This document shows, piece by piece, positions 24,484-46,786 of a stretch of DNA of 64,000 nucleotides. The notes under the pieces are model-generated. The model searched no databases. It was not told where the DNA came from and saw only the letters and a list, made by a program, of their open reading frames with translations. The stretch comes from Bacteroidales bacterium (GTDB lineage Bacteria; Bacteroidota; Bacteroidia; Bacteroidales; VadinHA17), in assembly GCA_003157015.1 (NCBI GenBank), contig PMIJ01000114.1, forward strand, positions 15,240 to 79,239. The letters run 5' to 3'. Within the stretch, counting starts at the first letter, position 1. Every line of letters begins with the position of its first letter. A program made the translations under genes and the position numbers.

Positions 24484-24591
24484 ATTACTGCATACTTAAT
24501 ATTGCTGCTTACTGTTTGCTAGTTTGGTTTCGCGTTCCGTGTTTCTCGTTGACTTGTTATTTACCTCTTTGTTGCTCTGTGCTCCTCTGCG

Positions 24592-25560
24592 TCACTCTGT
24601 GAAAGTTCTTCTTTCTTTATTGCATTCGCATTCCACAACAGTACCTATTTGCTGACTAAGATTCATTTTGATAAGTCGGTCAGTTCTTCCATATAAACAT
24701 TTATTACAGGTTGAAAAGAGTCCCAGATCCCAAGTATCTGCGAAAACCCGTCCTGCCTTTAATCCAATTCCATATTCCAGAACTTCTTCCAGGGAATGAA
24801 TATCCGGTAAGCTGAAATCTCCTTTATTCATCAATAAATCAATAGCTCCGTTTCCGGCTCTGACAGGAATAACTGTACAACATTCTACACCGGAGCTGAA
24901 TGCAAAATCGAGTGACCGTTCAGCCCAAAAAACACCTTCTGATTCTGAAAGAAACGGTGGTTTAAGCAATATAAATGCCCTTGTATTAATATCATGTTTT
25001 GTAAGAAAGCTGACAGAATTACTGAAATCGTCAATTGTCATCAGTTTATTAAGCTTACCTAAAATCTTTTTGTTTACAGTTTCAAGTCCAAGAGCAATCT
25101 GTAGTTCAGTTTTAAGCATATTTCTGAAATCCAGGCATTTATTATTGATTAGCCTGGGATGACTTTCAATAATGACTGTCTCAAAATCCTTCAGAATTGA
25201 GGCAATATTTTCATAATCTACCATCGGAACAGCCCTGTTATCAAAGAAGCTTCCGCTGTTATAGAGTTTCAGATGCTTAACATCTGGCATTTGAGACAGG
25301 GCTTGTTCAATCTGCGCCGGAATTGCCCCGGAAGGAACAGATTCATCTGTAGTGTTCTTCCAAAGATCGCACATCAGGCAATGAAAGGGACATTCCCTGT
25401 TGGTCAGAAATATAATTCCTGTATCTTCAATGCTCCCTGACACTGTTCGTTCCTTTTCGACCATCCAGCCATAAGGCTTCAGAGGGTCGACAGGATTTTT
25501 ATTTCCCCGCGAGGCTACAATCCATTGATCATTTATAAGCAGATCTGTCTTTTCACTCAT
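24592..25560 (-). CDS. Radical SAM protein, RaSEA / TIGR01210-like
   Basis: CPFHCLMC (CxxxCxxC), KLYNSGSFFD, IESHP, ALGLET and LLKPPFLSE motifs; extra C-terminal cysteines. Confidence 0.8.
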   Translation of the reverse strand: MSEKTDLLINDQWIVASRGNKNPVDPLKPYGWMVEKERTVSGSIEDTGIIFLTNRECPFHCLMCDLWKNTTDESVPSGAIPAQIEQALSQMPDVKHLKLYNSGSFFDNRAVPMVDYENIASILKDFETVIIESHPRLINNKCLDFRNMLKTELQIALGLETVNKKILGKLNKLMTIDDFSNSVSFLTKHDINTRAFILLKPPFLSESEGVFWAERSLDFAFSSGVECCTVIPVRAGNGAIDLLMNKGDFSLPDIHSLEEVLEYGIGLKAGRVFADTWDLGLFSTCNKCLYGRTDRLIKMNLSQQIGTVVECECNKERRTFTE

Positions 25561-26881
25561 AACTTGAAAGAAACTCTTTCCTGTAGGCTATCTCCTTTTC
25601 AGGGAAATGTTTGTTGAAATTTCTGTCGGAGGCTGCGCCATGCTGAAAACGTCTTTTCTGAAAAACGGGCATTTCTATTCCTGTAATTGCTTTAACGCCT
25701 GCGGAAACAACTTTACCTTTAAGTTCATAGAGTTTTTCATGATCCCAATTGGTCATATCTATGTATGGAATACCTTCAGATATTTCTATCACATTCGGTA
25801 ATGTATAAGGACTGAACCCTTCAAAACCCATGAGATCACCGGTAGCAAATGTCCGCATATATCCCCTGCTTAAGCCTCCGGAATAAGTTAATGAATGTTT
25901 AATGGATTCCACTCCCCAGCCTTCATGATAGAGCATTAGATTATTAAGGACACTTTTTATAGTTAATTCCGGATTTTCTTCAATTGGATAATCTTTCAGG
26001 TTTTCATCCCCGCCATCGCCGTCGATTAAATATTTCCAATCGGGATAGCATGACCTTATTCCCTGCAAAAGAGCTAAATTCATTGTTGCAGACTGAATAT
26101 CAAGAGCTTTATAATCTTCGACAACTTTCACTGCTTTTTTCCAATCCAATGATGAATAATCCACTTCAACCGGTTCGAGGAATAATCCGAGATTCACCGC
26201 TTCCAGAAATTTCCTGGCCTGGAGCAAATCAGCTCCGTCTCCATCAATTGAAAGAGTGAAAGCTTTCAATCTCGACGGACTTTCACCAAGTTCTCTGAGT
26301 GCATGATATGTCAGGAGGAATACAGAGCCACTGTCAATCCCTGCAGAAAAAGTTACGCCTACAGGACCCGATTTGGCACGGAACTTAAGCCACTTTTTAA
26401 TCTCATTATATAAAGTTCTGATATATTTTTCTCCGATGCTTTCCGGATCATAACCTGAGAATCTGTTGCGCTCAGGATCAAAGAAGCGTTCATAGACGGG
26501 GTTAGGGTCAGGACAACCCAAAAGTTCAATTTTAGTAATATAATGGGCCGGAGCCATCCTTGTATAAGATGGATGAAACTGATGATCAAGTCCTTCCTTT
26601 TTCAGGTAGTTGTAAATTACATCAATTCGCTCAGCGATAACCAGTTCGGGACCACCCGGACGTTTAGCTATAAAATACCTGATCGGACGTCCTATCGATC
26701 TGGCCATCCTGATTGTTTTACCCTCAACTGAGACCAGTGAAAACTGTCCGTCGATCGTCCTTACAGCATTGACATCACCTGCCTTTACGATATTTACGGC
26801 TTCTTCATGCGTCATATTATAAATGACATTTTTCTCTGGATTTGTGAGATCCGTAACATTGCTAACATAATGATTATTCAT
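25553..26881 (-). CDS. Asparagine-synthetase-like ATP-dependent amide ligase without the glutaminase Cys
   Basis: PP-loop FSAGIDSG and DGDGGDE. N-terminus MNNHY lacks the Cys2 of Ntn glutaminases. Overlaps the radical SAM gene by 8 bp. Confidence 0.8.
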   Translation of the reverse strand: MNNHYVSNVTDLTNPEKNVIYNMTHEEAVNIVKAGDVNAVRTIDGQFSLVSVEGKTIRMARSIGRPIRYFIAKRPGGPELVIAERIDVIYNYLKKEGLDHQFHPSYTRMAPAHYITKIELLGCPDPNPVYERFFDPERNRFSGYDPESIGEKYIRTLYNEIKKWLKFRAKSGPVGVTFSAGIDSGSVFLLTYHALRELGESPSRLKAFTLSIDGDGADLLQARKFLEAVNLGLFLEPVEVDYSSLDWKKAVKVVEDYKALDIQSATMNLALLQGIRSCYPDWKYLIDGDGGDENLKDYPIEENPELTIKSVLNNLMLYHEGWGVESIKHSLTYSGGLSRGYMRTFATGDLMGFEGFSPYTLPNVIEISEGIPYIDMTNWDHEKLYELKGKVVSAGVKAITGIEMPVFQKRRFQHGAASDRNFNKHFPEKEIAYRKEFLSSYE

Positions 26882-26922
26882 ATAATTGGATTTTTAAATG
26901 TTCTTATAAATCAAATTGCCTT

Positions 26923-27004
26923 TTGTAGAGACGCCCAATTTGGGCGTCTCTACAACAAATTTATCACAAAATTAGAAATAGGAGACACCCAGATTGGGCG
27001 TCTC
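26923..27004. repeat. GTAG-type REP palindrome doublet
   Basis: ttgtagagacgcccaa-t-ttgggcgtctctacaa (perfect 16-bp arms, 26923-26955) and a degenerate second copy at 26981-27004. Confidence 0.85.
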
Positions 27005-27006
27005 AA

Positions 27007-28668
27007 CTATTTCGATACAATTCCTGTTCCTTCTTTAATAGTAATATAACGGTCCGATGCAATTTTATTGTATACCTCCTTTTTCCTGTCGGACCATCTG
27101 ATTTCAAGTATGTCGATCATCTTTTCCTTACCGAGTCCGAAATGTACTCTTGGGTCATTGTTAGTAAGATAGGAAGTTGCCCATTGATTTATCATGACAT
27201 GTTTTTTCCCGCCGGCGGTAAGGGTTACTTTTGCTCCTATTGCAGCTGCTGGACCGTCCTTTCCTTTGAGTGTCAATCCGAGCCAGTGATTCTTGTTGCC
27301 TCCATCGTTTCTTAAGAGGACAGGCGTTCCTTGTTTATCAAGATGAGAAACAATAATATCGAGGTCTCCGTCATTGTCAAAATCCCATACAGCCAAAGCT
27401 CTGCCGGAACGCTTGGTTGAGAAGTAAGAACCATGTTCTTTTCCTACATTCTTAAAATGACCTGTTCCATCATTCTCCAGCAATAATGGATATTGCGGGA
27501 CAAGTTCTTCTGCAGTTCCATTTGCGGCCACTATATCGAGGTTACCGTCGTTATCATAATCAAAAAGTTGTGCACCCCAGCTGCCTTTGCCTGCCATGGC
27601 AGCCGCAACGCCACTTTCCTCAGTAATATCCTCAAATAGGCCATTACCAAGATTGCGGTAAAGAGCTCCATAATCAAGGTCTGATACAAGGATATCAATC
27701 AATCCATCGCCATCAACATCACCAATTGATGCGTGCATGGAACCTGTTCCTTCACCATGGCTGTTTGCTGCCACACCGCTTTGCACCCCGACTTCCTTAT
27801 AAATTCCATTGTCATTTCTGAAAAGGAAATTCAGCTGGTGATCGTTTGCCTGAAATATATCAAGATCACCGTCATCATCGTAATCAAATACTGTCAGCCC
27901 CATACACTTAGAATCGGGGTAATAAAGATTATTTTTCCTGGTAACATCAATAAATTTTCCATCGGCTTGTTGTTCGTAAAGCATTGATGCCTGGCCCCTA
28001 TACTCAGTTGGACTCGGCATCATATTTGGTGAAGCAGGAGTAAAATAAGCAGGGTTAAAAGCCAGAAAGTTGCCAACCATAGCATCCAGCCTTCCATCAT
28101 GGTTATAGTCCCAGAATGAGACACCAATACTCCACTTAGTAAAACCGTTTAACGTATCAGGTCCGCTAAGGCCTAATGAAGATGTTATATCGGTAAATGT
28201 TCCGTTGCCATTGTTATGGTAGAAGACATTTGGTCCATAATTCAGAACATAAAGATCCTGATATCCATCGTTATCGAGATCAATGGCCCCTGCAGCCATG
28301 CTCCACGTGTGGCGGCAATCTACTCCGGCCGCTTTGGAAACCTCTGTAAATGTGCCATTACCATTGTTTCTATAAAGATCATTATGTGAATTTTCGTAAA
28401 CTTTTCCTTCAGGATCTGATATGCCTTCAAGGTATGTTCCATTCATAAGGTAGAGATCCATTAACCCATCGTTGTTGTAATCAAAAATTGTAATTCCCGA
28501 CCCACTGCTCTCAAGGATATTTTTGTATGTGTCATCTCCATAGGTATATTTGAAAGTGATGCCTGCCTTTTTTGTTACATCAGTGAAAGTCACATTATTT
28601 TTCTGAGCAGCGGATTCGGAAGTTACCCGTATCAACAAGAACAAACATAAAAAACCGGTTAATTTCAT
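27007..28668 (-). CDS. CRTAC1-family FG-GAP/VCBS propeller with ASPIC/UnbV domain, secreted
   Basis: Repeated DxDxDGxxD calcium loops; C-terminal SYLTNNDPRVHFGLG...IRWS. Confidence 0.9.
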   Translation of the reverse strand: MKLTGFLCLFLLIRVTSESAAQKNNVTFTDVTKKAGITFKYTYGDDTYKNILESSGSGITIFDYNNDGLMDLYLMNGTYLEGISDPEGKVYENSHNDLYRNNGNGTFTEVSKAAGVDCRHTWSMAAGAIDLDNDGYQDLYVLNYGPNVFYHNNGNGTFTDITSSLGLSGPDTLNGFTKWSIGVSFWDYNHDGRLDAMVGNFLAFNPAYFTPASPNMMPSPTEYRGQASMLYEQQADGKFIDVTRKNNLYYPDSKCMGLTVFDYDDDGDLDIFQANDHQLNFLFRNDNGIYKEVGVQSGVAANSHGEGTGSMHASIGDVDGDGLIDILVSDLDYGALYRNLGNGLFEDITEESGVAAAMAGKGSWGAQLFDYDNDGNLDIVAANGTAEELVPQYPLLLENDGTGHFKNVGKEHGSYFSTKRSGRALAVWDFDNDGDLDIIVSHLDKQGTPVLLRNDGGNKNHWLGLTLKGKDGPAAAIGAKVTLTAGGKKHVMINQWATSYLTNNDPRVHFGLGKEKMIDILEIRWSDRKKEVYNKIASDRYITIKEGTGIVSK

Positions 28669-28782
28669 ACCTGCTTTTTCGATAAATTAATTATTCTGTC
28701 TTCCCTTTGTGCTACTTTGTACTTTACTTTGTGATTAAATTAATTAGTTTTACCACAAAGGAACACTAAGGCCTTTTTAGCG

Positions 28783-31700
28783 CTATTTTTTTAATGCATT
28801 TCGAAAATCATCCGATGTAACAACTCTGGTATTGTAATCCTTCAGATACTTCTGATGTTCATCATCCTTTGGATAAATATCAGATGCAGACGGTGGATAG
28901 CTTTTCATGCCATGGAAAGGAAGCGGCAGAACCGTGCTTCCAAGCGCTGTGTTTATATCACCGTCCTTCACCCAGCCTACGGTGTGAATCAGGAAATCTC
29001 TTTTCCACCCTTTCGTTAATTCCGGCAATACCCTGGAGTCAAACTCAACTGATGTTTCATCGCCTGCATTTGAAATAATATATTTGTTATCAGATTTCTT
29101 AAGCAGGGGCAATACATCACCGTAACGGGTATAATTGCCTGACAGATCGCGCCATTTGACAGCTTTATCAACACTGGAATAGTCAAACCAGTGAGGACCG
29201 TACCGGCCGCCTTTTCTGTAGCTATGTGAAAACCCTCTGTAATGCAAATCAGCTGCAACCGGATTAAGTATTGTTGAAACCACGGGAGCGTTTGAGACAT
29301 TATCAGAGAAAAAGATATAATCCCAATAGATCTCCATATTTGTTCTGATCCTTATCCTGTGATCTGCTGACAGGAACTTGCCTGACAGATCGGCAATTAC
29401 GGTCTTATCTTTTCCCATTGGAAATCCCAGGTTCTCAGTAACCGTTTCCCATTCGCCTTTTTTATTAATCACCTGTACGAAGGGACGGAAAACTTTCAGT
29501 GCAGAGGATTGTGAAATAGCAACATTAATACTGGCATCGGTAGGAAAAATCCAGCCATTCAGGAAAAGGAATAGATTCTTGTTTTTTCCCACATCGCCCG
29601 GATCAAGAATAAGATCGTGCATCTCCACAACTCCCTGGTATTTATCAGGTCCAAAGTCAGAGAGATATTTATCATCCTTTGCAGAAATGAATGAAAGAAC
29701 ATCGTTCCCCTGTGAATCTGTAGCACTCAGAGGGATGTGCTTTCCTTTAACCTCGAATAACTTATTGCCCGGGAAGGGTGGGGGAGAAAACTGTTCAGGA
29801 ACAAAAATATCTACAGAATCAGGATGATCGACAGCAACCAGTTGCACCTGATCGAAGAACATAGTCTCCCAAAGTTCTGATGTAAGCTGTATAGAGTATA
29901 TTCCGTTTCTTGGTTTCAGTAATTCGCCCGGTATCTTAATATAATCATCGGATGCATCGGGGAATGCGTATGCGGTATTGCCCCCCATTATTCCGAGCGG
30001 CATACCGAGAGCGCTTCTCCACATGACATCCTTTACAAAGGTAAATTCGTTTCCATCCCATGTGTATAGAAACGGACATGATCCTTTAAGTGTTTGTGCC
30101 TCAATCAGCGCCTGATTAGTTCCCGTTGATAAAATATTCTGCGGTACTCCATTGGTCCATGTGATCCTTATATTATCAGCTTTTGCCCTGTTTCCCAGTC
30201 CGAAATGTATATTTGGATCAGTGACTACCATAGACTGGTAAAGATCACCGGCACGTATTTCAACCTTTGCTCCAATCCCGAAATGATTATTCTTGGCGCT
30301 TCCTGCTCTTAACCCCACAAGCTTCATAGTTACATAATGGTTCAAATTTCCACCATCATTCCGTAAAAGGGTAACACCTCCATTTAATCCTGCAATAACT
30401 ATATCAATATCGCCGTCATCATTATAATCAAATAAAGCTATCTGGTTTCCTGATCTGGGTTCTTCGGGCAGAAGTCTGGAGACATCTTCAAAATTACCTT
30501 TCCCGTCATTATGATAAAGGAATACTCCGCGACCGCCTTTTTCATCAGATTCACCTGCAACAATAAGATCCTGATAACCATCATTATCAAAATCAAAGAA
30601 TTTAGCATCATAAACTTTTACATGTTTTAATGCAGCGAACATCTGATTTGAATTCTTTGCAAGTTCAAAAGTGCCATTACCCTTGTTTCGCATTAGCTCA
30701 TGATCACCTCCATTAACTGATGTGATGAAAAGGTCAGGAAATCCGTCATTATTATAATCTCCCACTGCCACTGCACCCGATCCTCCTTTACTTTTAAGAC
30801 CGCTGGCTTCAGTAATATCCTTAAAATTGCCCTGACGCTGATTTGAAAATAAGGTATTGCTTGAATTCTCATTTACTACGAACAGGTCAATGTCCCCATC
30901 GTCATCAAAATCTCCAAATGCTGCCTCGCGGCTATTGGCGTTCTTACACGACATTCCCATTTTTTCTGCCTGCTCCTGAAAAGTGCCATCTCCATTATTC
31001 CTGAACATCAGATTTGAATTCGATCCTGTTTCATATAAGTCAAGATCTCCGTCATGGTCCATATCGAAGAATAATGCTCTGTTTCCACCGGTTTTGCTGC
31101 CTATATGTGCTTTCTCAGTGACATTTTCAAAAATTCCTTTTCCGGCATTTCTGTATAATATATCACCGCCTTCTCTTGCAATAAAAAGGTCGAGAAATCC
31201 ATCGTTGTCGTAATCAGCAAATGCAGCCGATGATTCCTTACCCGAATGCTTTATTCCGGCTTCTTCTGAAACATCTTTAAACCTGCCCATATCATTGTTC
31301 ATCAGGTAATGCTTATAAGTCGAGGAAGCCTGATCATAGCTGCCCACATAGAGGTCAACATCTCCATCGCTGTCATAATCAGCTGCTTCCACATGAGTGG
31401 AATATCTGAATTCCGTATTCTTATCATCAATATTCGCCGGGATAATATTTAAACCGGCTGCGGCTGTAGCATCGGTAAATTTTATTGCAGAAAGAATTGA
31501 TTTATTTTCCCATGATTCTGATACAGGCTGCTGGTCATAAGAAATCAAAGGGAAACCGACTAATGATCCTCCGGGTCCTTTTAAATCCATGATACCGGCC
31601 TGGTAAGGTGAGGTAACTTTAAGATAATTATGGAATATTGTAAATTGAACTATTGCATTTTCCTTATCGGCCTTTTTCAGTAAAGAGAGTGTTTTGTTGT

Positions 31701-32340
31701 AATAATCAATGGCTTCCTTAGGGAACTCAGGAAATTGTTTATGAATAGTTTCCAGCTGTTCAGTTGCTTTGTCATAATCCCCGTTGCGGATGTAAATATC
31801 AGTCAGACTTAGTTTAGGGACAAGATTATCAGGAGCTTTCGCAACCAGCTGTAGCAATAAATTCTTCCTTTCCTGTATTGATGCGGTATCTGTTGCCGAC
31901 GAAAATAATTCAGTAAGATCATATAGAATTTTAACATGGTCGGGAGCAAATTTAAGAGCCTCTTTAAGTTCTGAGACAGCTTTTGCACGTTCATCATTCA
32001 TCTGGTACACCGTAGCCAGCAATAATCTTATATCCGCATCTTTAGGGTCAATTTTTATGGCTTCAAACAACTGCTTTTTTGCTTCAGGATATTTACCCAT
32101 TCTTAAATATGCCAGGCCCAGATTTGCATATCCGAGCTTCTCCTTAGGAGCCATTTTGATGAATTTTAAAAACTCCTTTTCTGCGTCATCAAGTTTGAAT
32201 TCCTCAAGATCTGCAAGACCAAGGGTCTGGGTCGTCATCAATTCGACCGATTTTTGTTTTGCGTCTTTTGCAGTATCCTTGCAGCTTAAAAGAAAAGAGA
32301 AGCAAAATGCAATTAGTAATAAAATGATATATTTATTCAT
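28783..32340 (-). CDS. Large lipoprotein: TPR repeats + FG-GAP propeller + ASPIC/UnbV + uncharacterised C-terminal domain
   Basis: Lipobox LLSC; TPR helices (YANLGLAYLRMG); many DxDxDGxxD loops; IHFGLG..ITWTNG; then about 430 aa starting GSCPFLYTWDG. Confidence 0.85.
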   Translation of the reverse strand: MNKYIILLLIAFCFSFLLSCKDTAKDAKQKSVELMTTQTLGLADLEEFKLDDAEKEFLKFIKMAPKEKLGYANLGLAYLRMGKYPEAKKQLFEAIKIDPKDADIRLLLATVYQMNDERAKAVSELKEALKFAPDHVKILYDLTELFSSATDTASIQERKNLLLQLVAKAPDNLVPKLSLTDIYIRNGDYDKATEQLETIHKQFPEFPKEAIDYYNKTLSLLKKADKENAIVQFTIFHNYLKVTSPYQAGIMDLKGPGGSLVGFPLISYDQQPVSESWENKSILSAIKFTDATAAAGLNIIPANIDDKNTEFRYSTHVEAADYDSDGDVDLYVGSYDQASSTYKHYLMNNDMGRFKDVSEEAGIKHSGKESSAAFADYDNDGFLDLFIAREGGDILYRNAGKGIFENVTEKAHIGSKTGGNRALFFDMDHDGDLDLYETGSNSNLMFRNNGDGTFQEQAEKMGMSCKNANSREAAFGDFDDDGDIDLFVVNENSSNTLFSNQRQGNFKDITEASGLKSKGGSGAVAVGDYNNDGFPDLFITSVNGGDHELMRNKGNGTFELAKNSNQMFAALKHVKVYDAKFFDFDNDGYQDLIVAGESDEKGGRGVFLYHNDGKGNFEDVSRLLPEEPRSGNQIALFDYNDDGDIDIVIAGLNGGVTLLRNDGGNLNHYVTMKLVGLRAGSAKNNHFGIGAKVEIRAGDLYQSMVVTDPNIHFGLGNRAKADNIRITWTNGVPQNILSTGTNQALIEAQTLKGSCPFLYTWDGNEFTFVKDVMWRSALGMPLGIMGGNTAYAFPDASDDYIKIPGELLKPRNGIYSIQLTSELWETMFFDQVQLVAVDHPDSVDIFVPEQFSPPPFPGNKLFEVKGKHIPLSATDSQGNDVLSFISAKDDKYLSDFGPDKYQGVVEMHDLILDPGDVGKNKNLFLFLNGWIFPTDASINVAISQSSALKVFRPFVQVINKKGEWETVTENLGFPMGKDKTVIADLSGKFLSADHRIRIRTNMEIYWDYIFFSDNVSNAPVVSTILNPVAADLHYRGFSHSYRKGGRYGPHWFDYSSVDKAVKWRDLSGNYTRYGDVLPLLKKSDNKYIISNAGDETSVEFDSRVLPELTKGWKRDFLIHTVGWVKDGDINTALGSTVLPLPFHGMKSYPPSASDIYPKDDEHQKYLKDYNTRVVTSDDFRNALKK

Positions 32341-32575
32341 ACTAATCAGGTTTTTTAAAGACAACAATGTTATTCTATGCTTCTGAAATGGCATTGTTAA
32401 TTCGCTTTTTAACTTTGTGTTCCTTGGTGACGTACTTAGTGCTCTTTGTGGTTCATTATTTACAATTTACCACAAAGGTACTCGAAGGTTTTCACTAAGG
32501 TACACGAAGGGCTAATTGGACATTCAGTTTGTTATTTTTATCAAAATTATGAAATTAAAGGAACATAACCCGTGT

Positions 32576-33700: not shown

Positions 33701-33720
33701 CAAAAGACCTCACTATTTTT

Positions 33721-34602: not shown

Positions 34603-34621
34603 TATTGCTTCGTTTATTTTA

Positions 34622-35935
34622 TTAATAGCCTCCTGTCGAACTTCCGCGTTTGTATTTCTGATCAAGCGGGGGAGCAGGAGAAAATACAAATTTTCCGTTA
34701 TGAACTTCGGCAATGAAAATATCTCTGATGTTGTTCCAGCTTCCATCCAGTATTATCTTGCCGGTAACTCCGTCATAATTCTGAAAAGTCTTTCTGTCAG
34801 TTAGCAGATCACGGATAAGCACCCTGTTTAATCCGGCTTTCCTGATAGCCTCAATTATAATGTTCATTCCATCATAAGAATGTGCAGCGAATACATCAGG
34901 TTCCTGGCCGAATCTCTTTAAATAATTAGCCTGGAATGCTTTCAGCTTTGGATTATCTGATGTCGGATTATATTGACATGTGGTAATGATTCCTTCAGCC
35001 AATGGCCCGGCAATCGTAAGAAATTCGGGATTCACAACCCGGTCGGAAAAATATACCGGTTGTTTTAGTCCGATTGCACGCATCTGTTTCAGAATAAGTC
35101 CCGACTCTTTTGCATTTCCCCAAACGAGAATTGCATCGGGGTTTGTAACCATAATTCTTTCCAGCTGTGTTTTAAAATCAGTTTCTCCATCATTGAACCT
35201 CTCCTCAATGATCATTGGATGTCCGACACGTGTAGCATTCTCCGAAAAGATTTTTATTCCGACTCTGCCATACCTGTTGTTGGCCCTGATGACAGCGACA
35301 CGGGCATGGCCGTCTTTTTTGTATATTCTGGTAACCAATTGATATCCGCTCTGCCTGTCGTCGGGGATGACACGATTCAGCCATGGTATATTTGTCTCTG
35401 TAAAAGTCGGATCAGGATCACCGACACATAGCATGAAAATTTCCAGCTTTAATGCTGCTCGTAAGGCCACATGGGAAACTATATCATCAATTGACCCCAT
35501 GAATATCCATACTTTTTCATCATCCATTTTAACCACTTCATTTGCAGCGGCTCCCCACAATCCGGCATCATTGTGTGGCATTAAAACGAAAGGAATTCCC
35601 TTGTAGCCGCCATTTTTGTTAGCCTCCTCCATTGCAAGTTTTGCACCCTGTAACATTTGTATTCCCTGAGGCACCATTACTGAACCACTAAGAGGCCCAA
35701 GAAATCCTATTCTTACTTCTTTAAGATCAGCAGGTGCTTTTAATTCACGTCCGGCACCATAGAACTGAATAGGGTTGAGGAAATGGTACATATACGCTTT
35801 CGTATATTTCTGATACGGGAAAAGTTCATCGGGAGCTTTGCCATAATTTTGTTTCTGTTCCTGTCCGTTTAAAATTGAAGCTGGCACAAAAAGTGTGATC
35901 AGAAAAGCTGCTGCTAAAAAATGTCTAGTTTTCAT
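34622..35935 (-). CDS. Leu/Ile/Val-type periplasmic solute-binding protein (orphan)
   Basis: Signal peptide; [36 protein letters not shown] and GVTGKI motifs. Confidence 0.88.
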
Positions 35936-35944
35936 GATTGTGAA

Positions 35945-36532
35945 TTAATTTGATTTACAGATTGCATAGACTTCAATTTCGACAAGAAGGGTTTCCCAGC
36001 ACAATCTTGCCTGAATACCTGTACTGGCCGGCAGTGGATCGAGCTTCATCCATGTATAGAAGGATGTACGGATCTTATTGAATTCTGCATAATCCCTTTC
36101 AATATCCCTGAGATAGTTTGTTGTTCTTACAACATCATGCCAGCTCATTCCTTCTGCAGACAACAGATTGGTAATATTTACATAAGTTCTCCATAACTGG
36201 GCTTTAAAATCGCCGATATGCTCTGCCTTGCCTTCTTCGTTTACGCTGGCAGTGCCTGAAATGAGCAATACCTTATGACCTCCGAAATCCAGACGTAATG
36301 CACGGGAAAAGGAAGATGGTTTTTGATAGTTATATGCTTCATTTATAACATGTGGAGCATGAACAACAAGTTTTTCAATAGGAGGACGATCTTCATGTAC
36401 CTCAGGATATTTATAGGTGTTAATTTCATTATAATCAGATAATATACCAAGCTTTTTCATCTCGAGTTTTTCTCCATCAGTAAGCTTTGACAGATCAATG
36501 AGTAATTGTTTTTTCTCTATTATCTCAATCAT
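35945..36532 (-). CDS. Rid (YjgF/YER057c/UK114) fold protein, chorismatase-like
   Basis: FSRA, ISGTAS, H.GD..AQ and LC...LLVEIE. Has PAST where RidA has PAR(S/T). Confidence 0.75.
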   Translation of the reverse strand: MIEIIEKKQLLIDLSKLTDGEKLEMKKLGILSDYNEINTYKYPEVHEDRPPIEKLVVHAPHVINEAYNYQKPSSFSRALRLDFGGHKVLLISGTASVNEEGKAEHIGDFKAQLWRTYVNITNLLSAEGMSWHDVVRTTNYLRDIERDYAEFNKIRTSFYTWMKLDPLPASTGIQARLCWETLLVEIEVYAICKSN

Positions 36533-36572
36533 ATCACAAGTATTAACTCATTCGACTTTTTCAATTTTTCAA

Positions 36573-37709
36573 CTATTTAAGTAATTCTCCACGACTAACA
36601 CCTTTTTCAGTAGCTACCCAAAGCACCTCTTTATCAGCATCGACACCAATAATGAAATTATGAGCTATTGAGGGACTCATTGGAATTTCCCTGGTAGTTT
36701 TATTCGCTGTACTGTCGTCGTCGCGGCTGAAATTGGATATGATAGCTTTCCCGTTACTGTCATTATCATTTTTCTTATAAGTAACCCAGCCTTTCCCGTT
36801 GGTACTGCTTAGCCCGTTGTCGCTGCAAATGAATACCACAGGGCCCTCAGCTCTGACAAAATTGATGAAGTTGCTTGCCAGACCGCAATGTTCTTTAAAG
36901 TAGCCTTTCCAGTGCGTGCCGTCATAGCTGCTTAAACCAAAATAGGTCGATACCCACAGATATCCGGCTCCCCAGGTAGTTGCTGTTGTTATATCATGAA
37001 CTATTCCATCATCGGGGAGTAAGTCAATTTCCATTTCACCGTCAGGATCGGTATAATCCTTGAATTGTTTCGTCTTCTTAGTATATTCGATAACACCGCC
37101 TCCCCAGGCAGCAATAAAAATCTTGCCATCGCCTTCGGAGACACCATAAGTCCAAGGCTCATGCATGGGGGCATTTTGTTCGGTGAATATCTCCCATTGC
37201 CTGGTTGCCGTATCATAATGACCTGCGCCGCCACCAGTGGCTACCCAAACGTCTTTTCCGTCGCATATGACGCAGTAAACCAGATCATTTGGCATGCCGC
37301 TGTTTAACTGAGTGAAATTTTCAAACTTGCCTCCCGACCACCTGCTTAGTCCTCCCAGTGTTCCGATCCAGACATCTCCGGTTACCTGGCTTACATCAAT
37401 GGATAATATTCCATTGTGTGGAAGACCATCAGTTGTGGTATACGTTTTCCACTTCCCATTCTCATAAACAGCCAGTCCATCATGGGTTCCTGCCAATACC
37501 CTGTCACCATCAACACGGACACAATAAACATGATCGGAAGGAAGCCCGTCCTTTGTGGTAAAATTGCGCCAATGACCGTATACTGGCATCTTATTCGCGT
37601 CATCCCTTACATTGGTCTTAACTGAAGGTTGTCCGTTCATGGTGCAGACGCCTGAAAGTATCAATGCAACAATGCCCATAAGAACCTTTTTAACTAATAA
37701 TTTTCCCAT
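36573..37709 (-). CDS. Stand-alone two-component-regulator-type beta-propeller, secreted
   Basis: Repeats of T.DGLP....V..I..D....WxGT.GG; no kinase or transmembrane output domain. Confidence 0.8.
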   Translation of the reverse strand: MGKLLVKKVLMGIVALILSGVCTMNGQPSVKTNVRDDANKMPVYGHWRNFTTKDGLPSDHVYCVRVDGDRVLAGTHDGLAVYENGKWKTYTTTDGLPHNGILSIDVSQVTGDVWIGTLGGLSRWSGGKFENFTQLNSGMPNDLVYCVICDGKDVWVATGGGAGHYDTATRQWEIFTEQNAPMHEPWTYGVSEGDGKIFIAAWGGGVIEYTKKTKQFKDYTDPDGEMEIDLLPDDGIVHDITTATTWGAGYLWVSTYFGLSSYDGTHWKGYFKEHCGLASNFINFVRAEGPVVFICSDNGLSSTNGKGWVTYKKNDNDSNGKAIISNFSRDDDSTANKTTREIPMSPSIAHNFIIGVDADKEVLWVATEKGVSRGELLK

Positions 37710-37728
37710 GATTTTCACTGTTAATAGA

Positions 37729-39756
37729 TTAGTTTTTAGCATGATTTTTCTTTAAATCCACATATTCGTATTGGGGAGATCTTAGTGATTTCAGATAATC
37801 AATAAGTTCATTAAGCTGAATTTTTGTCATATCATTTACCACTCCGTGTTTATCACCTTTCCCGTATTTGGTCCAGATTTCCTCCAGAGTTGCAGCACGA
37901 CCGTCATGTAAATAGGGTGCAGAAGCATAAATATCATTAAGGTGAGGAGTATCAAACAGTATTGAATCATCTGTTGAGGACAGAGTCTGAACATATGCCA
38001 GCTTACGATTGGTATAATAAGGAGGTGTATGACAGGTAATGCAACGATTGGCTTCAGGTATTTCTTTTCCGTAGTTATCCTTTGTTCGTTCAAATATTTC
38101 CTTTCCGTGTAATTGCGCTTCTGTAAGTTTCCCTTCAGGATTATACTGAAGATTAGGAGGATTCTTTATTCCTGTAAGGATGTAAGCAGTGAGGGCATCA
38201 AGATCCTTATAACTGAACGATTCTGTACGTGTTAGGAAAGTGGAAAAACGCATTCCGTCCTGCTTATATACAGTAGGGTTAGTTCCCGACCATTTAAATG
38301 GCGCAGTTTCACTTATATCCCTCAGTGTCATTGTATTAGTTACATTCCGGCCCATGTCCTTACCTGACATATTATAAACAAGGCCGTCTTCATGCATATC
38401 CGGATGGCAGGTATAACAACAATACTGATTCTGAAAGGTATGCGAAGAATTGTTAAAGAGCCTGCGTCCACGACGGGCAACAGTTATTCTGTGAGGACCT
38501 CCAAGGTCGATGGTTGAGACTTTCTGCAGGCTCTCTGTATTAATAACGCCAATATTGTCATCAAGCATCTCTGCCACATAGAGCAGCTTACCGTCGGGTG
38601 AAAGTGCAATCCCTTTCGGGTTCGCACCTGTGTGAATGCGCTTCAGAATATATCGGCTGCTGATACCAAGATTATTTGAGAATTGTTTCCGTGCTTCAGG
38701 AGATGCACCTGCTAACAGTGTTCTTACTGAGTCAACATCTACAATGGAAATATAATCTGCACCGGCACTGGAGATAAAAGCTTTTTTACCATCGGGAGTG
38801 ATTGCGATGCCAAATGGATCGGAATAGAAGGAATCAGGTTCATCTATCAGCAACTCGCTGATTTTTCCGTCTTTCCCTGGTTCGATTACACCGAATCCAT
38901 GGGTCATCATCCAACCCTGTTCAACCTGTATGGCGGGCACATAATTCTTGGGTCTTATCAATGTCACAAATCCGAGGTCACCGCGAGGAGTGAATGCGAT
39001 ATTTTCCATCATATAAGCAGATTCAATTTTCTTGTACTCAGAAATCCTCCTGGAACTGTCATTTATAACTGTGAGCTCGCTAACAAGCGGTTCGCCATAA
39101 GGAGCAATTTTGGCACGTCTGCTTGTTACAAAGAGGAACTTGCCGTCAGGAGACAGTTTAGCACCGGTAGGGTTATTACCGGCAGTGATGCGGTTTATTT
39201 CTTCTTTTGAATTAAGATTAATAACTGAAACATCCGACGAAAATGAGTTAACCACATAAAGTGCCTTGCCGTCACTGCTCAATGCAAGGCCGGCAGGACC
39301 GTTGCCTGTTTTAAGCGTATCTGTGACTTTTCCTGCTGAAAGGTCAATTACGGAAACATTATCCGACCACTGATTGCTGACATAAGCTTTCAGACCGTCT
39401 TTACTTAGTATGACTGAATGAGGCTGGTTACCAACATCGATTTTATTTATAACTTTATTCTTCTCTGCATCAACAATAAGCAATGCATTGCTTTCCTGAG
39501 CAACAACATATAATCTTTTGCCGTCGCCCGAAACAGTAAGGTTAATCGGTGACAGGTACCTGGCATTTACAAGTTTAGCAGAGAGACCTGTTTTCTGAAT
39601 ATAAAGATGGCATGAAGTACATAAAAGCGGATGATCAGTGGTCGCTGTTTTTTCGTTAACATGCGCCCTGGCCCATTTTCGTCCCGGAAAATAGATTAGC
39701 AGAGCCAGAACAAGAATGATTCCCGATAAGCGGATAAATAGAGTTGATCTCTTCAT
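37729..39756 (-). CDS. YVTN beta-propeller fused to a di-heme cytochrome c peroxidase/MauG-like domain (hydrazine synthase beta+gamma-like), 3 CxxCH motifs
   Basis: CTSCH near the N-terminus; YVTN repeats (YVSNQWSDNVSVID, YVVNSFSSDVSVIN); CYTCH, CITCH and FDTPHL...APYLHDG.A.TLEE. Confidence 0.85.
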   Translation of the reverse strand: MKRSTLFIRLSGIILVLALLIYFPGRKWARAHVNEKTATTDHPLLCTSCHLYIQKTGLSAKLVNARYLSPINLTVSGDGKRLYVVAQESNALLIVDAEKNKVINKIDVGNQPHSVILSKDGLKAYVSNQWSDNVSVIDLSAGKVTDTLKTGNGPAGLALSSDGKALYVVNSFSSDVSVINLNSKEEINRITAGNNPTGAKLSPDGKFLFVTSRRAKIAPYGEPLVSELTVINDSSRRISEYKKIESAYMMENIAFTPRGDLGFVTLIRPKNYVPAIQVEQGWMMTHGFGVIEPGKDGKISELLIDEPDSFYSDPFGIAITPDGKKAFISSAGADYISIVDVDSVRTLLAGASPEARKQFSNNLGISSRYILKRIHTGANPKGIALSPDGKLLYVAEMLDDNIGVINTESLQKVSTIDLGGPHRITVARRGRRLFNNSSHTFQNQYCCYTCHPDMHEDGLVYNMSGKDMGRNVTNTMTLRDISETAPFKWSGTNPTVYKQDGMRFSTFLTRTESFSYKDLDALTAYILTGIKNPPNLQYNPEGKLTEAQLHGKEIFERTKDNYGKEIPEANRCITCHTPPYYTNRKLAYVQTLSSTDDSILFDTPHLNDIYASAPYLHDGRAATLEEIWTKYGKGDKHGVVNDMTKIQLNELIDYLKSLRSPQYEYVDLKKNHAKN

Positions 39757-39758
39757 AA

Positions 39759-41192
39759 CTATTCGGTGTCGATCATTTTATCTTTAATCTTATTTATGTG
39801 GACAGGGATGCCAACAGGTGCTTTTCTTACTGCAAGAGGAATCCGGTTATCAGGGACGATATCCTGATCTTCATGACATCCTACGCATCCCCTTCGTTCA
39901 TTGGGACGTAGCCATATCCAGTCACATTTCCGGATTACGTTTCCCATTTCATCAAGTGTACGGATCTGGAAAGGCTTGTCTGCTATCACCTTAAGGTAGA
40001 ATGACCCATCCCCCGAAGGTTTAAATACTCCCAGTGACGAATCAATTCCCATTATCTCTACTTTTGAAATCTTTTTAAGCATGACACCGGATATCTTTGC
40101 AGGGTTATCCTCTACATTCACATCCTGACACATAATGAGGCCGGTTTTTATAACGGCATTCACCTCGCTTGGCAGCTTTCTGGATCTGATATGTTTCACT
40201 GCATCAACAACTTCAAGTACATCGAATTCATTATTGCTGTAAATGGGTTTGCCCAGAGATTTATTCTCAGGATCGAATTCATAAAGCGCATATCTGTCAT
40301 TGGTGGTTTTGCGGAATGAGACCAACAGCTTCCCTGAGGGTTGAGGACAAACAGCCCTGAAATCACCTTCAATTTCAGAGGACAGGTTGAGCCTGGAGTG
40401 CATCGGACGATTATAACTGACTGAAATAAGATTTCCTTTATCCGGGTTACTCTTTACCGATTCGATGAAAACTATTCTTCCATTGTCTGTTTCCAATCCG
40501 CGACCTGATAATTCACTGCCTTCGCTGCCCTTGTAAAACAGTTCTGACTTGGTACCGTCGGGTCGCATAACCATAAACTTCTGATCCCCTGTTTCAGGGA
40601 ATTCCTGCACTCCGATCGTCAAAATGCGACCGTCACGGAGTACGTTGGAAGCTACATACATGCCCGGATTGTAAGTTATACGCTTCTGGTCAGAGCCATC
40701 AATATTACTTGTAAAAATGGATTCATTTGCCTTCAATGAATCGGTAGCTGAATGACTGGTAAAAAGGAAACGTCCGAGCGGTAAATAAGCCGGATCGGTG
40801 CAATCCGTTTTCAGTTTTGTTAACTGCCTTGTCTTAAGGTTTCCAAGATCAGTTTCCCAAATCTGCCATGTATCACCTTCATTTTTCTGACCGGCAAAAA
40901 TCATGAAATGTCCGTCACTTGATATTTCAGGAGACCTGGCTGAATAAAAAGAGGATGTGAGTAGCTTTGGTGATGGGTCAGGCTTGCCCGGCTCAATTGC
41001 AACAATCTCTGACCGGAGAATATATTTCCGTGAACTTGCTGCAGAGAAATTTGAATTTTCAATCTTTCCTGCAGTTCTTGTTATAACTATACTAGCTTCT
41101 TTTAATTTTTCCCTGCATGAGGTCAGAAAAAGGCTGCTAATGCCTGTGGCCATTATAAATAAGAAGACTATGGTCGATCGATGGTTATTCAT
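39759..41192 (-). CDS. Hydrazine synthase alpha-like lipoprotein (TolB-like propeller + HZS-alpha middle domain, 1 CxxCH)
   Basis: Lipobox LTSC; PD40-like repeats; C-terminal DGSFYLKV.ADKPFQIRTLD...WLRPNERRGCVGCHE. Confidence 0.75.
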   Translation of the reverse strand: MNNHRSTIVFLFIMATGISSLFLTSCREKLKEASIVITRTAGKIENSNFSAASSRKYILRSEIVAIEPGKPDPSPKLLTSSFYSARSPEISSDGHFMIFAGQKNEGDTWQIWETDLGNLKTRQLTKLKTDCTDPAYLPLGRFLFTSHSATDSLKANESIFTSNIDGSDQKRITYNPGMYVASNVLRDGRILTIGVQEFPETGDQKFMVMRPDGTKSELFYKGSEGSELSGRGLETDNGRIVFIESVKSNPDKGNLISVSYNRPMHSRLNLSSEIEGDFRAVCPQPSGKLLVSFRKTTNDRYALYEFDPENKSLGKPIYSNNEFDVLEVVDAVKHIRSRKLPSEVNAVIKTGLIMCQDVNVEDNPAKISGVMLKKISKVEIMGIDSSLGVFKPSGDGSFYLKVIADKPFQIRTLDEMGNVIRKCDWIWLRPNERRGCVGCHEDQDIVPDNRIPLAVRKAPVGIPVHINKIKDKMIDTE

Positions 41193-41199
41193 CCGGAGG

Positions 41200-42897
41200 C
41201 TATTTTTGCAGTTCTTTAATAGTAAGAATCTGATTGACTTTGATATTCTCAAGCACCTGTAATTTCCCTGAGGGCCACTTTATCTCGATTCTGTCAACCA
41301 TCTCATTCTTAGCCAGACCAAAATGCATCCGAGGATCATTCTGAGAAAGATATCCTGAAGTGCTTTTCTTCTGATTCGTTTGCACTTTGCCTCCTGATGT
41401 CACCTTTATCCTGGCACCTATTCCGTCTCTGTTGCTTACCGTTCCGATGAGATTGAGAGTTATCCAGTTGTTCTGATTTCCTTTGTTATTTCTCAGGAAT
41501 GCCCCGCGGTCATTCAGATTCACAATATATGCATCAATGTCTCCATCATTGTCGTAGTCGCCAAAACAGGCCCCTCGTCCAACCAGCTTTTCCTTAAAGT
41601 AACTGCCCAAATCCCATGAAACGTCCTTGAATTTTCCGTTTCCAAGGTTTTCAAAAACCTGGTCCTCCTGCCCGTAGAGATGTTTCAGCGCTCCGTTTGT
41701 TTTATAAATATCAACCAGACCATCATTGTTATAATCAAAGAAGGAAGAGGACCATCCGACAAATTGTCCTGCAGGCATTGCTATTCCCGACGGGTATGAT
41801 TGTTCGCTGAAGATGCCGTTTCCCATGTTTTCATAAAGCCTGCAGTACTTGTCATCAGAAATGAACATGCCCATTCTTCCAGAACCTGTATAATCAGCAA
41901 AATCTACAGACATACTGACTGCCGATTCTCCTGATTGGCCAAACGCAGTTCCTGAAGGAGTGCCCACGTCAGTGAAGCTCTTTCCTCCGTTATTGTGCCA
42001 GAGGTAATTCATTGAATGGTCATTGGCAACATAAATATCAACGAATCCATCGTCGTCATAGTCTATTGCGCCAACACCCATAGCTCTTCCGTCCAGGTCG
42101 ACTATTCCCATTTTTTTCGTAACATCCTCAAATGTGCCATCTCCATTGTTGTGATATAAAACATCAGGCTGGGCATCATAGGCCAGTGGACCGGGAAAGC
42201 CGTCAGGAGCGTAATAATATTTATAGTTTGGATCAAAATTGATGTACTTACCAACATAGAGGTCGAGGAAACCGTCGTTGTCATAATCGAGCCAGACAGC
42301 TCCTGTATTGAAATCAGTTTCTTTTCCTCCGACACCGGCGCGTTTGGTCACATCTGTGAACGTTCCGTCACCGTTATTTTTATAAAGAACATTAGTTCCG
42401 TAATTGCTGACATATAAATCGGGATATCCATCATTATTGAAATCGCCGACTGTTACTCCCATGCTGTACCATGGGCCACCAACTCCTGCTTTTTTTGTAA
42501 CGTCCTCAAAGGTTCCGTCACCGAGGTTATGATAGAGATGATTCTCAGGCATTATGGCAGGTTTCTCCCCGCTGCTCACACCTTTAAGCCAGGTCCCGCT
42601 GCAGACATATAAATCTATAAATCCATCCTGATCATAGTCGAGAAAGGCAGCTCCGGCACCGCTTGATTCAACTATATTAGTCAGCTCTTTGTCACCGATA
42701 GAGTGAACAAAATCAATACCGATCTCTTTGCCGATCTCCTGAAAATAATCACCATTCGGAGCAGGAACAAAGTGTTTCTTTACACCTGATGATTTATTAT
42801 TTGACTGGCAGGCTGAAACACACAGCAGGAGAATAAAAAGGAAAACTAAGTAAAAGGATTCATCTGAATTACTGAAAAACTTCTTTATTGCACGCAT
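41200..42897 (-). CDS. CRTAC1-family FG-GAP/ASPIC-UnbV lipoprotein
   Basis: Lipobox VSAC; DxDxDGxxD repeats; SGYLSQNDPRMHFGL..IEIKWPSG. Confidence 0.9.
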   Translation of the reverse strand: MRAIKKFFSNSDESFYLVFLFILLLCVSACQSNNKSSGVKKHFVPAPNGDYFQEIGKEIGIDFVHSIGDKELTNIVESSGAGAAFLDYDQDGFIDLYVCSGTWLKGVSSGEKPAIMPENHLYHNLGDGTFEDVTKKAGVGGPWYSMGVTVGDFNNDGYPDLYVSNYGTNVLYKNNGDGTFTDVTKRAGVGGKETDFNTGAVWLDYDNDGFLDLYVGKYINFDPNYKYYYAPDGFPGPLAYDAQPDVLYHNNGDGTFEDVTKKMGIVDLDGRAMGVGAIDYDDDGFVDIYVANDHSMNYLWHNNGGKSFTDVGTPSGTAFGQSGESAVSMSVDFADYTGSGRMGMFISDDKYCRLYENMGNGIFSEQSYPSGIAMPAGQFVGWSSSFFDYNNDGLVDIYKTNGALKHLYGQEDQVFENLGNGKFKDVSWDLGSYFKEKLVGRGACFGDYDNDGDIDAYIVNLNDRGAFLRNNKGNQNNWITLNLIGTVSNRDGIGARIKVTSGGKVQTNQKKSTSGYLSQNDPRMHFGLAKNEMVDRIEIKWPSGKLQVLENIKVNQILTIKELQK

Positions 42898-43161
42898 TTT
42901 TAGGGTTATATTTTATGAATATAATATTGCCGTCCTAATCAGTTTCTATTAAAAAAAATACCGGCTGAACAAACTAAAAGGCCGTAAATATAATAATTTT
43001 CATATACCTCTTAACCTTACGACCTCATTTGTAAAACCTGTTACCCTGTTTACCTTCTAAAACTAACCTAAACAATATTAACCTATAACCTTGAAACGAT
43101 TCCTGACTATGCAAATTATTCAGGAGATTTAATTTTTGACTAAGGCAATGTTACGCATGCC

Positions 43162-46785: not shown

Positions 46786-46786
46786 T

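Follow-up and report, generated by a model that had tools for sequence, protein, structure and literature searches.

The locus described here raises the question of what relatives of hydrazine synthase (HZS), an enzyme that to our knowledge has long been considered relative-free, are doing beside cytoplasmic enzymes in a bacterium of the order Bacteroidales. It lies in a stretch of 64,000 nucleotides (hereafter, the window) of contig PMIJ01000114.1 (C87 in our numbering), which belongs to a 238-contig genome of 5.2 Mb that is 95.65% complete (GCA_003157015.1), and DNA runs labelled as peat or permafrost metagenomes contain the window. Here, 12 co-directional open reading frames (ORFs; g1 to g12) occupy positions 42897 to 24592 of the minus strand, arranged head to tail. 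A preliminary description had presented them as a single operon for an undescribed pathway, and our domain scans agree almost entirely with its list of domains and coordinates. What we found is that the HZS homologues in Bacteroidota belong to a larger, co-inherited 12-gene unit that is seen in RNA libraries, and that this unit is made up of two separable modules, namely B (g1-g8), which carries the heme proteins, and A (g9-g12), in which two FG-GAP proteins are joined by an enzyme pair predicted to be cytoplasmic.

To place the heme core, we considered the first four genes, all of which, as elsewhere in the cluster, are on the minus strand. The first, g1 (41200..42897), encodes a CRTAC1-type lipoprotein with six FG-GAP_3 stretches and an UnbV_ASPIC domain in Pfam, and its N-terminus (...VSAC), read by eye, has what we take to be a lipobox. 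In g2 (39759..41252), we recognised a homologue of HZS-alpha (PF18582, 53.7 bits) of 497 residues, with a likely start at M21 (41192) that is followed by ...LTSC, and with a single CXXCH motif (CVGCH at 456). Its neighbour g3 (37729..39756) is a fused homologue of HZS beta and gamma, in which a YVTN-type propeller is joined to a CCP/MauG-like di-heme domain. Both domains are thus found as the preliminary description had named them, though the protein has three heme motifs (CTSCH at 46, CYTCH at 447, and CITCH at 572) rather than two, owing to the addition of an N-terminal one. Across seven orthologues (43-76% identity), neither these three motifs nor Trp489 vary. Lastly, g4 (36573..37742) encodes a Reg_prop-type beta-propeller predicted to be exported (27.5 bits in Pfam versus a cut-off of 20.4), with a likely start at M12 (37709); its look-alikes in the Atlas are Reg_prop clusters, and the Atlas record likewise begins at residue 12.

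How close, then, do these proteins come to HZS itself? Compared with the HZS structure (PDB ID: 5C2V), g2 matched the alpha subunit (chain A) with an E-value of 1.3e-15, and g3 matched both the beta (chain B; E 1.8e-50) and gamma (chain C; E 2.4e-17) subunits. Nonetheless, the scores with the NCBIfam models for HZS all fell far below their cut-offs, these being 88.6 versus 800 for alpha (NF052339), 239.6 versus 1250 for the BC model (NF052342), 217.9 versus 560 for beta, and 81.1 versus 625 for gamma. More conspicuously, in the alignment with 5C2V chain C, Trp489 of g3 stands opposite the histidine of PFRHEG (gamma-His144), and the cysteine that makes the third heme bond (gamma-Cys165) sits in an insertion that g3 is without. 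Moreover, g2 lacks the pairing of an alpha-I heme with a bis-His alpha-II heme that marks two-heme alpha subunits, and it precedes g3, rather than following it as in the HZS order (beta and gamma before alpha). As for the di-heme domain of g3, Pfam CCP_MauG was passed narrowly (27.3 versus 25.6) with no single stretch passing alone, and among the NCBIfam models the scores were 25.5 versus 150 for CytoC_perox and 25.3 versus 444 for MauG, in addition to weak matches with MbnH and the beta subunit of QH-amine dehydrogenase. Since this domain has the CCP/MauG-type Trp and is without the HZS-specific residues, we regard the complex as something other than a hydrazine synthase, and from these sequence features it appears very unlikely that the locus makes hydrazine. 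Among 14 named control genomes, the Pfam HZS_alpha model scored over its cut-off in Bacteroides thetaiotaomicron, which means that a gut model organism also has a protein with an HZS_alpha domain.

Part of this module is already in print. In December 2025, HZS homologues from outside the anammox bacteria were reported as four clades of co-located alpha and beta-gamma proteins (Hagglund et al. 2025, PMC12758564). According to the main text of that paper, to which we limit all comparisons with it, clade III has the order of an FG-GAP/CRTAC1 gene, alpha, fused beta-gamma, and then two binding-protein genes, and its proteins show a short alpha without the second heme, an extra heme motif in beta-gamma, and Trp at gamma-His144. 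The same text states that clades II and III have no alpha-II heme, that the homologues carry a two-residue gap at alpha-Tyr591 and Ser590 and an unconserved Glu in the beta loop, and that FG-GAP genes are partners of the heme genes in clades I-III. Its authors deem the homologues incapable of hydrazine synthesis and propose no function for them. In the window, g1-g8 show every one of the clade III features given in that main text (order, heme motifs, and Trp), and by these features the heme module matches the published clade III cluster type, to which no function was assigned. Nowhere does the main text use the terms DAHP, radical SAM, or asparagine. The idea of an undescribed pathway survives in part: a cluster type matching g1-g8 had been published, while a characterised pathway of this composition was not encountered in the literature, and no functional account of the cluster or of bacterial CRTAC1/ASPIC proteins was found among open-licence PubMed Central papers and bioRxiv preprints.

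Module A begins with g9 (28783..32394), a lipoprotein of 1203 residues with N-terminal TPRs, seven FG-GAP_3 stretches, and UnbV_ASPIC in Pfam (likely start M19), followed by g10 (27007..28668), an FG-GAP/ASPIC protein of CRTAC1 type that is predicted to be exported. Next comes g11 (25553..26881), the most conserved gene of the cluster, for which we predict a cytoplasmic adenylating enzyme with the fold of AsnB and beta-lactam synthetase (PF00733, 32.2 versus 21). Its AlphaFold model, built from an alignment of 150 sequences, had a pLDDT of 91.6, and a Foldseek search with the whole length of the model gave beta-lactam synthetase (PDB IDs: 1M1Z and 1MC1) as the best hits (TM 0.62-0.64, E 4e-14), with matches over about 450 columns to 1M1Z, 1MC1, 9B6C, 1Q19, and 1CT9. 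The protein has a PP-loop variant (SAGIDS) and the motif DGDGGDEN of its own family. Its score with the model for true AsnB is far under the cut-off (TIGR01536, 27.9 versus 267), and as it begins with MNNHY, there is no N-terminal Cys nucleophile, in which respect it presumably resembles beta-lactam synthetase and carbapenam synthetase. When g11 was compared with 90% clusters, the 120 proteins listed were all at least 88% identical, as befits a large family, and so representatives of 50% clusters were used instead; these define a compact family of 718 representatives at E-values up to 0.001.

The last gene, g12 (24592..25560), overlaps g11 by 8 nucleotides and encodes a radical SAM enzyme resembling RaSEA, with a TIGR01210 score (116.1) under the cut-off of 212.15 for an alignment of g12 residues 37-317 with positions 5-299 of the 313 in the profile. 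In an alignment of 37 sequences, the cysteines of its CX3CX2C motif (CPFHCLMC at 57), namely C57, C61, and C64, are invariant, and C288, C311, and C313 in the C-terminal part are nearly so. Solved relatives of g12 were not found with the 37-sequence profile, nor were any found for g11 or g12 in single-sequence searches; a single-sequence structure model of g12 was unusable (mean pLDDT 32), and a prediction of a complex of g11 with g12 scored 0.00, which gives no answer and is evidence neither way. According to the abstract of PMC11298593, ArcS attaches lysine and its partner RaSEA turns the resulting adduct into an amidine, with RaSEA and ArcS forming a complex. Taken with the 8-nucleotide overlap of g11 and g12, the RaSEA-ArcS complex so described hints that an amide or amidine nitrogen is made in two steps.

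Between the heme core and module A lie four further genes of module B. The first of these, g5 (35945..36532), encodes a Rid-family protein of 195 residues (58.7 bits versus 27.3), predicted to be cytoplasmic and extended at its N-terminus by about 85 residues. The protein scores 42.8 versus 106 with TIGR00004 and has PAS where 2DYY, 2CWJ, and 1XRG have PAR, the motif that holds the conserved Arg of RidA, and Ser replaces the RidA-type Arg in three of the five alignments shown. The label of chorismatase-like, given to g5 in the preliminary description, had to be dropped. As a candidate FkbO/Hyg5 chorismatase, g5 scored 25.7 versus 325 with TIGR04444, covering only positions 185-262 of the 311 in the profile, and 16.4 versus 27 (E 0.0093) with Pfam FkbO_Hyg5-like_N, and its 195 residues compare with an expected length of about 310-340. 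Two genes, g6 (34622..35935) and g8 (32576..33703), encode binding proteins of the Peripla_BP_6 type in Pfam, both predicted to be exported, of which g6 is of the HAAT type for amino acids and amides, with binders of the Leu/Ile/Val type as its PDB relatives. Both resemble amino-acid binders, and g8, with 35-71% identity to its orthologues, is the fastest-evolving gene of the cluster. No LivH/M-type permease (PF02653) was found in the genome, at its 95.65% completeness. Finally, g7 (33721..34746; likely start M49 at 34602) is a DAHP synthase of type I-beta, over the cut-offs of NF006421 (447.2 versus 335) and TIGR01361 (391.3 versus 267.75), and the third PF00793 gene of the genome besides a DAHP synthase-chorismate mutase fusion and a KDO8P synthase. 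Both g5 and g7 are optional members of the cluster. A clean absence of g5 was seen in 13 of the 76 loci that could be evaluated for it, and of g7 in 6 of 65, all three Maribacter loci among them. Given that these genes are dispensable across loci, the product from shikimate or chorismate that the preliminary description had envisaged shrinks to a precursor that is at most an auxiliary supply.

Is the cluster a unit at all? Among 15 related genome loci, all 12 genes are present in the same order in 13, an arrangement that is thus not due to chance; the exceptions are L015, where the contig ends inside g9, and L019, which is without g7 and g12. In 40 relatives of the source genome, a g3 orthologue occurs in 15 of 24 genomes of the same genus and in one other family of the order, and g11 occurs in the same 16 genomes plus one more (G010), so that both genes are present in 16, neither in 23, and g11 alone in one. 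Moreover, the identities of g3 to the window covary with those of g11 and g12 over 11 loci (Spearman 0.80 and 0.93), though this phyletic pattern and covariation are descriptive only, as the genomes are kin. Beyond these, a relative of g3 (E up to 1e-30) was found in 3 of 400 other genomes sampled from the phylum. A pattern scan with one genome per species yielded 311 relatives, and the best 80 of these, which we analysed, are all from Bacteroidota and keep the g1-g10 order. The co-occurrence on which the preliminary description had let its idea of a unit depend is therefore borne out, in that several orders of Bacteroidota have the genes in an unchanged order, and in loci of Bacteroidales and Flavobacteriales the modules are adjacent though their flanks differ. 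Cultured carriers include Maribacter arenosus, M. polysiphoniae DSM 23514, M. luteus, and Lutibacter citreus, and g12 follows g11 in all five Maribacter and Lutibacter genomes. In the few-contig assemblies G003, G006, and G018, copies of the cluster are in pieces, which may be a matter of sequencing error or decay. Two assemblies of the same genus, G006 (C23 and C24) and G020 (C64 and C130), have the cluster or its end twice, at loci L018, L198, L016, and L197, with one copy in G006 in pieces and the other intact; either the bin mixes strains or the cluster was truly duplicated.

The unit is nevertheless modular. A metagenome scan, run with an alignment led by a distant relative of g11, returned 567 relatives, and we analysed the 80 best; these fall into 30 Bacteroidota-like loci (g11 at least 70% identical to that of the window) and 50 others (42-66% identity, with G+C contents of 0.42-0.72). 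In the Bacteroidota-like loci, g10 is upstream of g11 in 18 of 19 evaluable cases, and g12 is downstream in 25 of 25. In the other 50, g12 adjoins g11 in 28 of 34 evaluable loci, and in 14 of 21 the gene after g12 encodes a flavoprotein of some 510 residues. Thus, g11-g12 is an enzyme unit of its own that recurs in contigs of very different base composition. Among the loci of this other type that span at least 8 kb, 8 of 22 have an FG-GAP/ASPIC gene, as set against only seven UnbV_ASPIC matches in the 5.2 Mb of the source genome, and in L170 and L188, on high-GC contigs, architectures like those of g9 and g10 (a TPR protein of 1236 residues and a protein of 596 residues) lie near the g11-g12 pair. 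Genes for NMT1-type ABC importers (binding protein, permease, and ATPase) are found near g11-g12 in L131, L135, L170, and L194, which also are high-GC.

The two modules remain neighbours through rearrangements. In L187 and L192, g9-g12 come before g1-g8; in L084, g11-g12 stand ahead of g1; and in L065, g11-g12 are upstream of the heme module on the opposite strand. Each module can also stand alone. In G240, sugar genes surround g11, a Wzi-like gene, g12, and the flavoprotein, on a contig other than that of its heme genes. One locus, L196 (G010:C11:27500-47499), is a deletion remnant with the last 80 or so codons of g10 and an intact g11-g12 (89% and 74% identity), and g3 was not found in this genome, which is rated 99% complete. 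The single operon of the preliminary description, then, is supported insofar as its halves stay adjacent when permuted and contigs from RNA libraries bridge most of the junctions, and gives way insofar as the cluster is two separable modules.

The flavoprotein deserves a closer look. A GGW.W stretch is invariant in its family (L142:12240-13763, L201:5910-7409, and 17 further loci), and all 19 members scanned match QhpG, GoxB, and CmlS, with 16 of the 19 also matching LodB, all at scores far under the cut-offs (82 versus 240 for QhpG, for example). It was not found in the genome of the window with one query, and among 154 Bacteroidota-type subjects there was a single real case, again G240, where g11-g12 are away from the heme module. 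An ORF for a precursor peptide is not conserved upstream of g11 in 44 loci, where only close relatives share upstream sequence.

As for RNA, two peat metatranscriptome runs from one study gave contigs over 29 of the 30 bins each (window 24000-43900), and two bioreactor RNA runs from two other studies gave 22 and 20 of 30, leaving uncovered one bin in X15, one in X16, eight in X17, and ten in X18. Contigs with zero mismatches bridge g10/g9, g5/g4/g3, and g2/g1, and those with a few mismatches bridge g8/g7, g7/g6, and g6/g5. The cluster is thus a conserved unit that is probably expressed.

The layout of the locus is largely as the preliminary description had it, with short or overlapping junctions and repeats in the larger gaps: at nine junctions the genes overlap or are separated by no more than 40 nucleotides, and three wider gaps, of 181, 114, and 125 nucleotides, contain palindromic repeats. 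Several of the true starts are probably later than those of the longest ORFs, so that apparent overlaps of 53 and 125 nucleotides vanish. Its split into four cytoplasmic and eight exported products also agrees with the N-termini as read by eye, of which eight are of the signal or lipoprotein type and those of g5, g7, g11, and g12 are not; we infer the placement of the twelve products from these. In the g10/g11 gap (26925..27007) there is a palindrome pair, GAGACGCCCAA..TTGGGCGTCTC, one member of which scored as terminator-like, and in the g9/g10 gap (28727..28771) a palindromic repeat of family D15, CTTTGTGG...CCACAAAG, of which the g8/g9 gap has a second copy (32444-32488). The larger intergenic gaps are filled by palindromic repeats of the REP type (26925-27007, 28727-28771, and 32444-32488), and the contigs of the RNA libraries end at 26924-26958 with differing loose ends, which suggests an element with multiple copies in the community. 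Between 23500 and 48800, a search for riboswitches and known RNA families gave three matches only, all at chance level, and counts of promoters and terminators were not above those of shuffled sequences (59 versus 50.6 and 15 versus 16.1), and are uninformative on operon structure.

Upstream of g1, on the same strand, are genes for an OmpR-type response regulator (46787-47464) and a HAMP histidine kinase (45418-46812), which together span 45418..47464 (Pfam). The pair directly precedes g1 in many Bacteroidales loci, and is not there in those of Maribacter or Lutibacter; by position, it is a candidate regulator of the cluster. In this genome only, a Fib_succ_major and fn3 gene (43523-44809, minus strand) stands between the two-component genes and g1; as the kinase gene adjoins g1 in related loci, it looks like an insertion. 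Downstream of the two-component genes, on the plus strand at 48740-57436, are ORFs of 1051, 630, and 1102 residues, the last with an UnbV_ASPIC match (C87:70921-71124, window 55682-55885), and in L028 and L086 the cluster was confirmed to have similar genes, of the SusC/SusD type, as neighbours.

What could such a cluster do? Building on the anatomy, homologies, conservation, modularity, and RNA-library presence set out above, we tentatively propose, with a probability of roughly 0.4, a periplasmic heme-propeller system of the peroxidase or MauG type that would be served by an amide compound derived from an aromatic amino acid in the cytoplasm; every chemical step, the complex, and the localisation are put forward here as inferred. 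In this proposal, g11 would adenylate a carboxylate and couple an amine to it, and g12 might then remodel the adduct by radical C-N chemistry after the model of RaSEA and the ArcS lysine adduct. The product would be an amide or amidine compound from an aromatic amino acid, with the optional DAHP synthase boosting the precursor. It would next go to the periplasm, to be held by the binding proteins, the FG-GAP/ASPIC propellers, or both, where the heme complex may oxidise or use it with chemistry of the peroxide type.

Several observations weigh against this proposal. The cluster contains no gene for a small-molecule exporter and no known RNA family or riboswitch, and the argument from an aromatic precursor is weakened by the loss of g5 from 13/76 and of g7 from 6/65 evaluable loci. 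Relatives of g2 or g3 were found in the flanks of none of the 50 g11 loci of non-Bacteroidota type. Conversely, in G436, a genome rated 100% complete, g1-g8 are present and g11 was not found; G010 keeps just the g10 stub and g11-g12; and in G240, g1-g6 are followed by SusC/SusD genes on one contig, as expected of separable modules. The RNA-library contigs prove neither transcription nor a single transcript, and carry-over of DNA is possible. Separate transcripts are possible too, since the g10/g11 and g8/g9 gaps contain a hairpin resembling a terminator as well as TAnnTTTG motifs. Lastly, the flavoprotein matches QhpG, GoxB, and LodB about as well as CmlS, and so fits modification of a protein as well as small-molecule chemistry.

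The main rival, which we consider unlikely, is in keeping with that last point, and holds that the system makes a protein-derived cofactor by post-translational maturation. Here, g11 and g12, elsewhere with the flavoprotein, would modify an exported protein ahead of its export, most plausibly the FG-GAP/ASPIC propellers, and in Bacteroidota the MauG-like domain of g3 would finish an oxidative maturation once the protein is in the periplasm, much as tryptophan tryptophylquinone is completed by MauG. Enzymes of the QhpG, LodB, and GoxB types hydroxylate a protein Trp, and NCBIfam describes GoxB and LodB as oxidase maturases, so the matches of the flavoproteins (19/19 with QhpG and GoxB, 16/19 with LodB) speak for it; the CmlS halogenase scores equally, with all scores far below the cut-offs. 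The CCP/MauG-type Trp of g3, in addition to its weak matches with MauG, MbnH, and the QH-amine dehydrogenase beta subunit, is also in its favour, as is the standing of FG-GAP/ASPIC genes as common partners of both the heme genes (main text of PMC12758564) and the g11-g12 pair (8/22 loci). The sole flavoprotein among the 154 Bacteroidota-type subjects, that of G240, where g11-g12 are apart from the heme module, cuts both ways: it accords with maturation, yet this genome also has a g3 homologue, and therefore flavoprotein and heme protein do not strictly replace each other. Maturation moreover leaves the DAHP synthase, Rid protein, and amino-acid-type binding proteins without a role, and neither a conserved small precursor ORF upstream of g11 (44 loci) nor a candidate modified residue was found. 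Distinctly unlikely, in our estimation, is that modules A and B, and perhaps the DAHP synthase, Rid, and binding proteins as well, are functionally separate and adjacent merely through common descent and joint transfer. Each module does occur without the other, the larger gaps with hairpins and promoter motifs fall exactly at the g8/g9 and g10/g11 borders, and the two-component pair upstream and truA downstream are also syntenic in the genus, so that much of the conservation is plain vertical synteny. Mere neighbourhood is nevertheless hard to square with an adjacency that survives at least three module orders and different flanks in Bacteroidales and Flavobacteriales, with the concordant presence or absence in 39 of the 40 relatives, and with the FG-GAP/ASPIC genes that both modules have, alongside both sets of partners.

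A further and rather improbable thought is that the bacterial CRTAC1-type FG-GAP/ASPIC propellers form a hitherto unrecognised class of periplasmic redox proteins in need of a dedicated cofactor made by g11 and g12 and finished by either the flavoprotein, in other lineages, or the heme complex, in Bacteroidota, with HZS descended from such a complex; the cofactor could be either a diffusible amide derived from an aromatic amino acid or a quinone-like residue derived from protein. We give little credence to catabolism or detoxification in the periplasm, whereby the binding proteins would present an external compound, amino-acid-like or aromatic, to the heme complex, and the cytoplasmic enzymes would process what is imported. 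Amino-acid-type binding proteins in a genome in which no importer was found, NMT1-type ABC importers near g11-g12 in L131, L135, L170, and L194, and the organic-rich habitats of the carriers (peat, fen, lake, and sea, by record titles and run labels), with their complex organic matter, would suit it. A biosynthetic DAHP synthase does not, the Bacteroidota cluster encodes no system for uptake of the product, and enzymes with the AsnB fold or resembling RaSEA are known from biosynthesis and modification, not catabolism. Least probable is chemistry of the HZS type, in which an N-N or N-O bond would be made on a nitrogen-containing product of the cytoplasm, as the preliminary description had entertained. 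The clear homology to all three HZS subunits, the retention of both candidate catalytic heme sites (gamma-I-like and alpha-I-like), and the fact that the binding-protein family also binds urea and amides (NCBIfam matches) are compatible with it. Nevertheless, the cluster is present in cultured Maribacter and Lutibacter, strains of which are aerobic marine bacteria, and every HZS cut-off is missed by far. The replacement of gamma-His144 by Trp and the absence from g3 of the insertion with the third-bond Cys (5C2V alignment), together with the gap at alpha-Tyr591/Ser590 and the losses of the beta-loop Glu and the alpha-II heme (main text of PMC12758564), leave the N-N chemistry unlikely.

Returning to our proposed heme-propeller system with its cytoplasmic amide compound, what the unit adds to the HZS homologues is a conserved cytoplasmic enzyme pair that tends to adjoin CRTAC1-type proteins. 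As the full unit is present in cultured strains, both the function of the HZS homologues outside anammox and the ancestry of HZS become testable at the bench, and should a new cofactor or amide metabolite prove to be the product of the enzyme pair, its chemistry would be new as well.

Set against known systems, the heme core is like anammox HZS (5C2V; NF052339-NF052342) in its architecture of propellers and c-type hemes and its predicted exported location, and like the HZS of Ca. Scalindua in having beta fused to gamma. It is unlike HZS in that g2 is shorter by some 300 residues and has one heme instead of two, the genes stand in reverse order, g3 has an extra N-terminal heme motif, Trp for gamma-His144, and no equivalent of Cys165, the scores amount to 11-39% of the family cut-offs, and the carriers are Bacteroidota without an anammox context. 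With CCP, MauG, and MbnH, the C-terminal domain of g3 shares two CXXCH motifs and a conserved Trp at the position of the catalytic Trp of CCP and MauG; it differs from them in being fused to a propeller and a third heme, in being paired with an HZS-alpha-like heme protein, in having no gene for a known MauG substrate nearby, and in NCBIfam scores that are far under the cut-offs. The two-domain fold (E 4e-14 to 7e-11, TM 0.55-0.64) and PP-loop of g11 are those of beta-lactam synthetase, carbapenam synthetase, AsnB, and TsnB9, from which it is set apart by identities of 9-17% and its own DGDGGDEN motif. Similarly, g12 resembles the ArcS-RaSEA pair of archaeosine synthesis (PMC11298593) as a TIGR01210-type radical SAM enzyme beside one that possibly attaches an amine. 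Its partner, however, has the fold of AsnB and beta-lactam synthetase rather than being ArcS, the carriers are bacteria, and g11-g12 show no link to tRNA or preQ0, with no search aimed at ArcS or preQ0 genes having been made. The flavoprotein that follows g12 elsewhere is like the QhpG, LodB, and GoxB maturases and the CmlS halogenase by its family matches, and unlike them in its scores below the cut-offs and in that its gene was not found in the Bacteroidota cluster or the genome of the window. Finally, the main text of PMC12758564 on clade III has neither the second FG-GAP module nor the two-module structure of the cluster.

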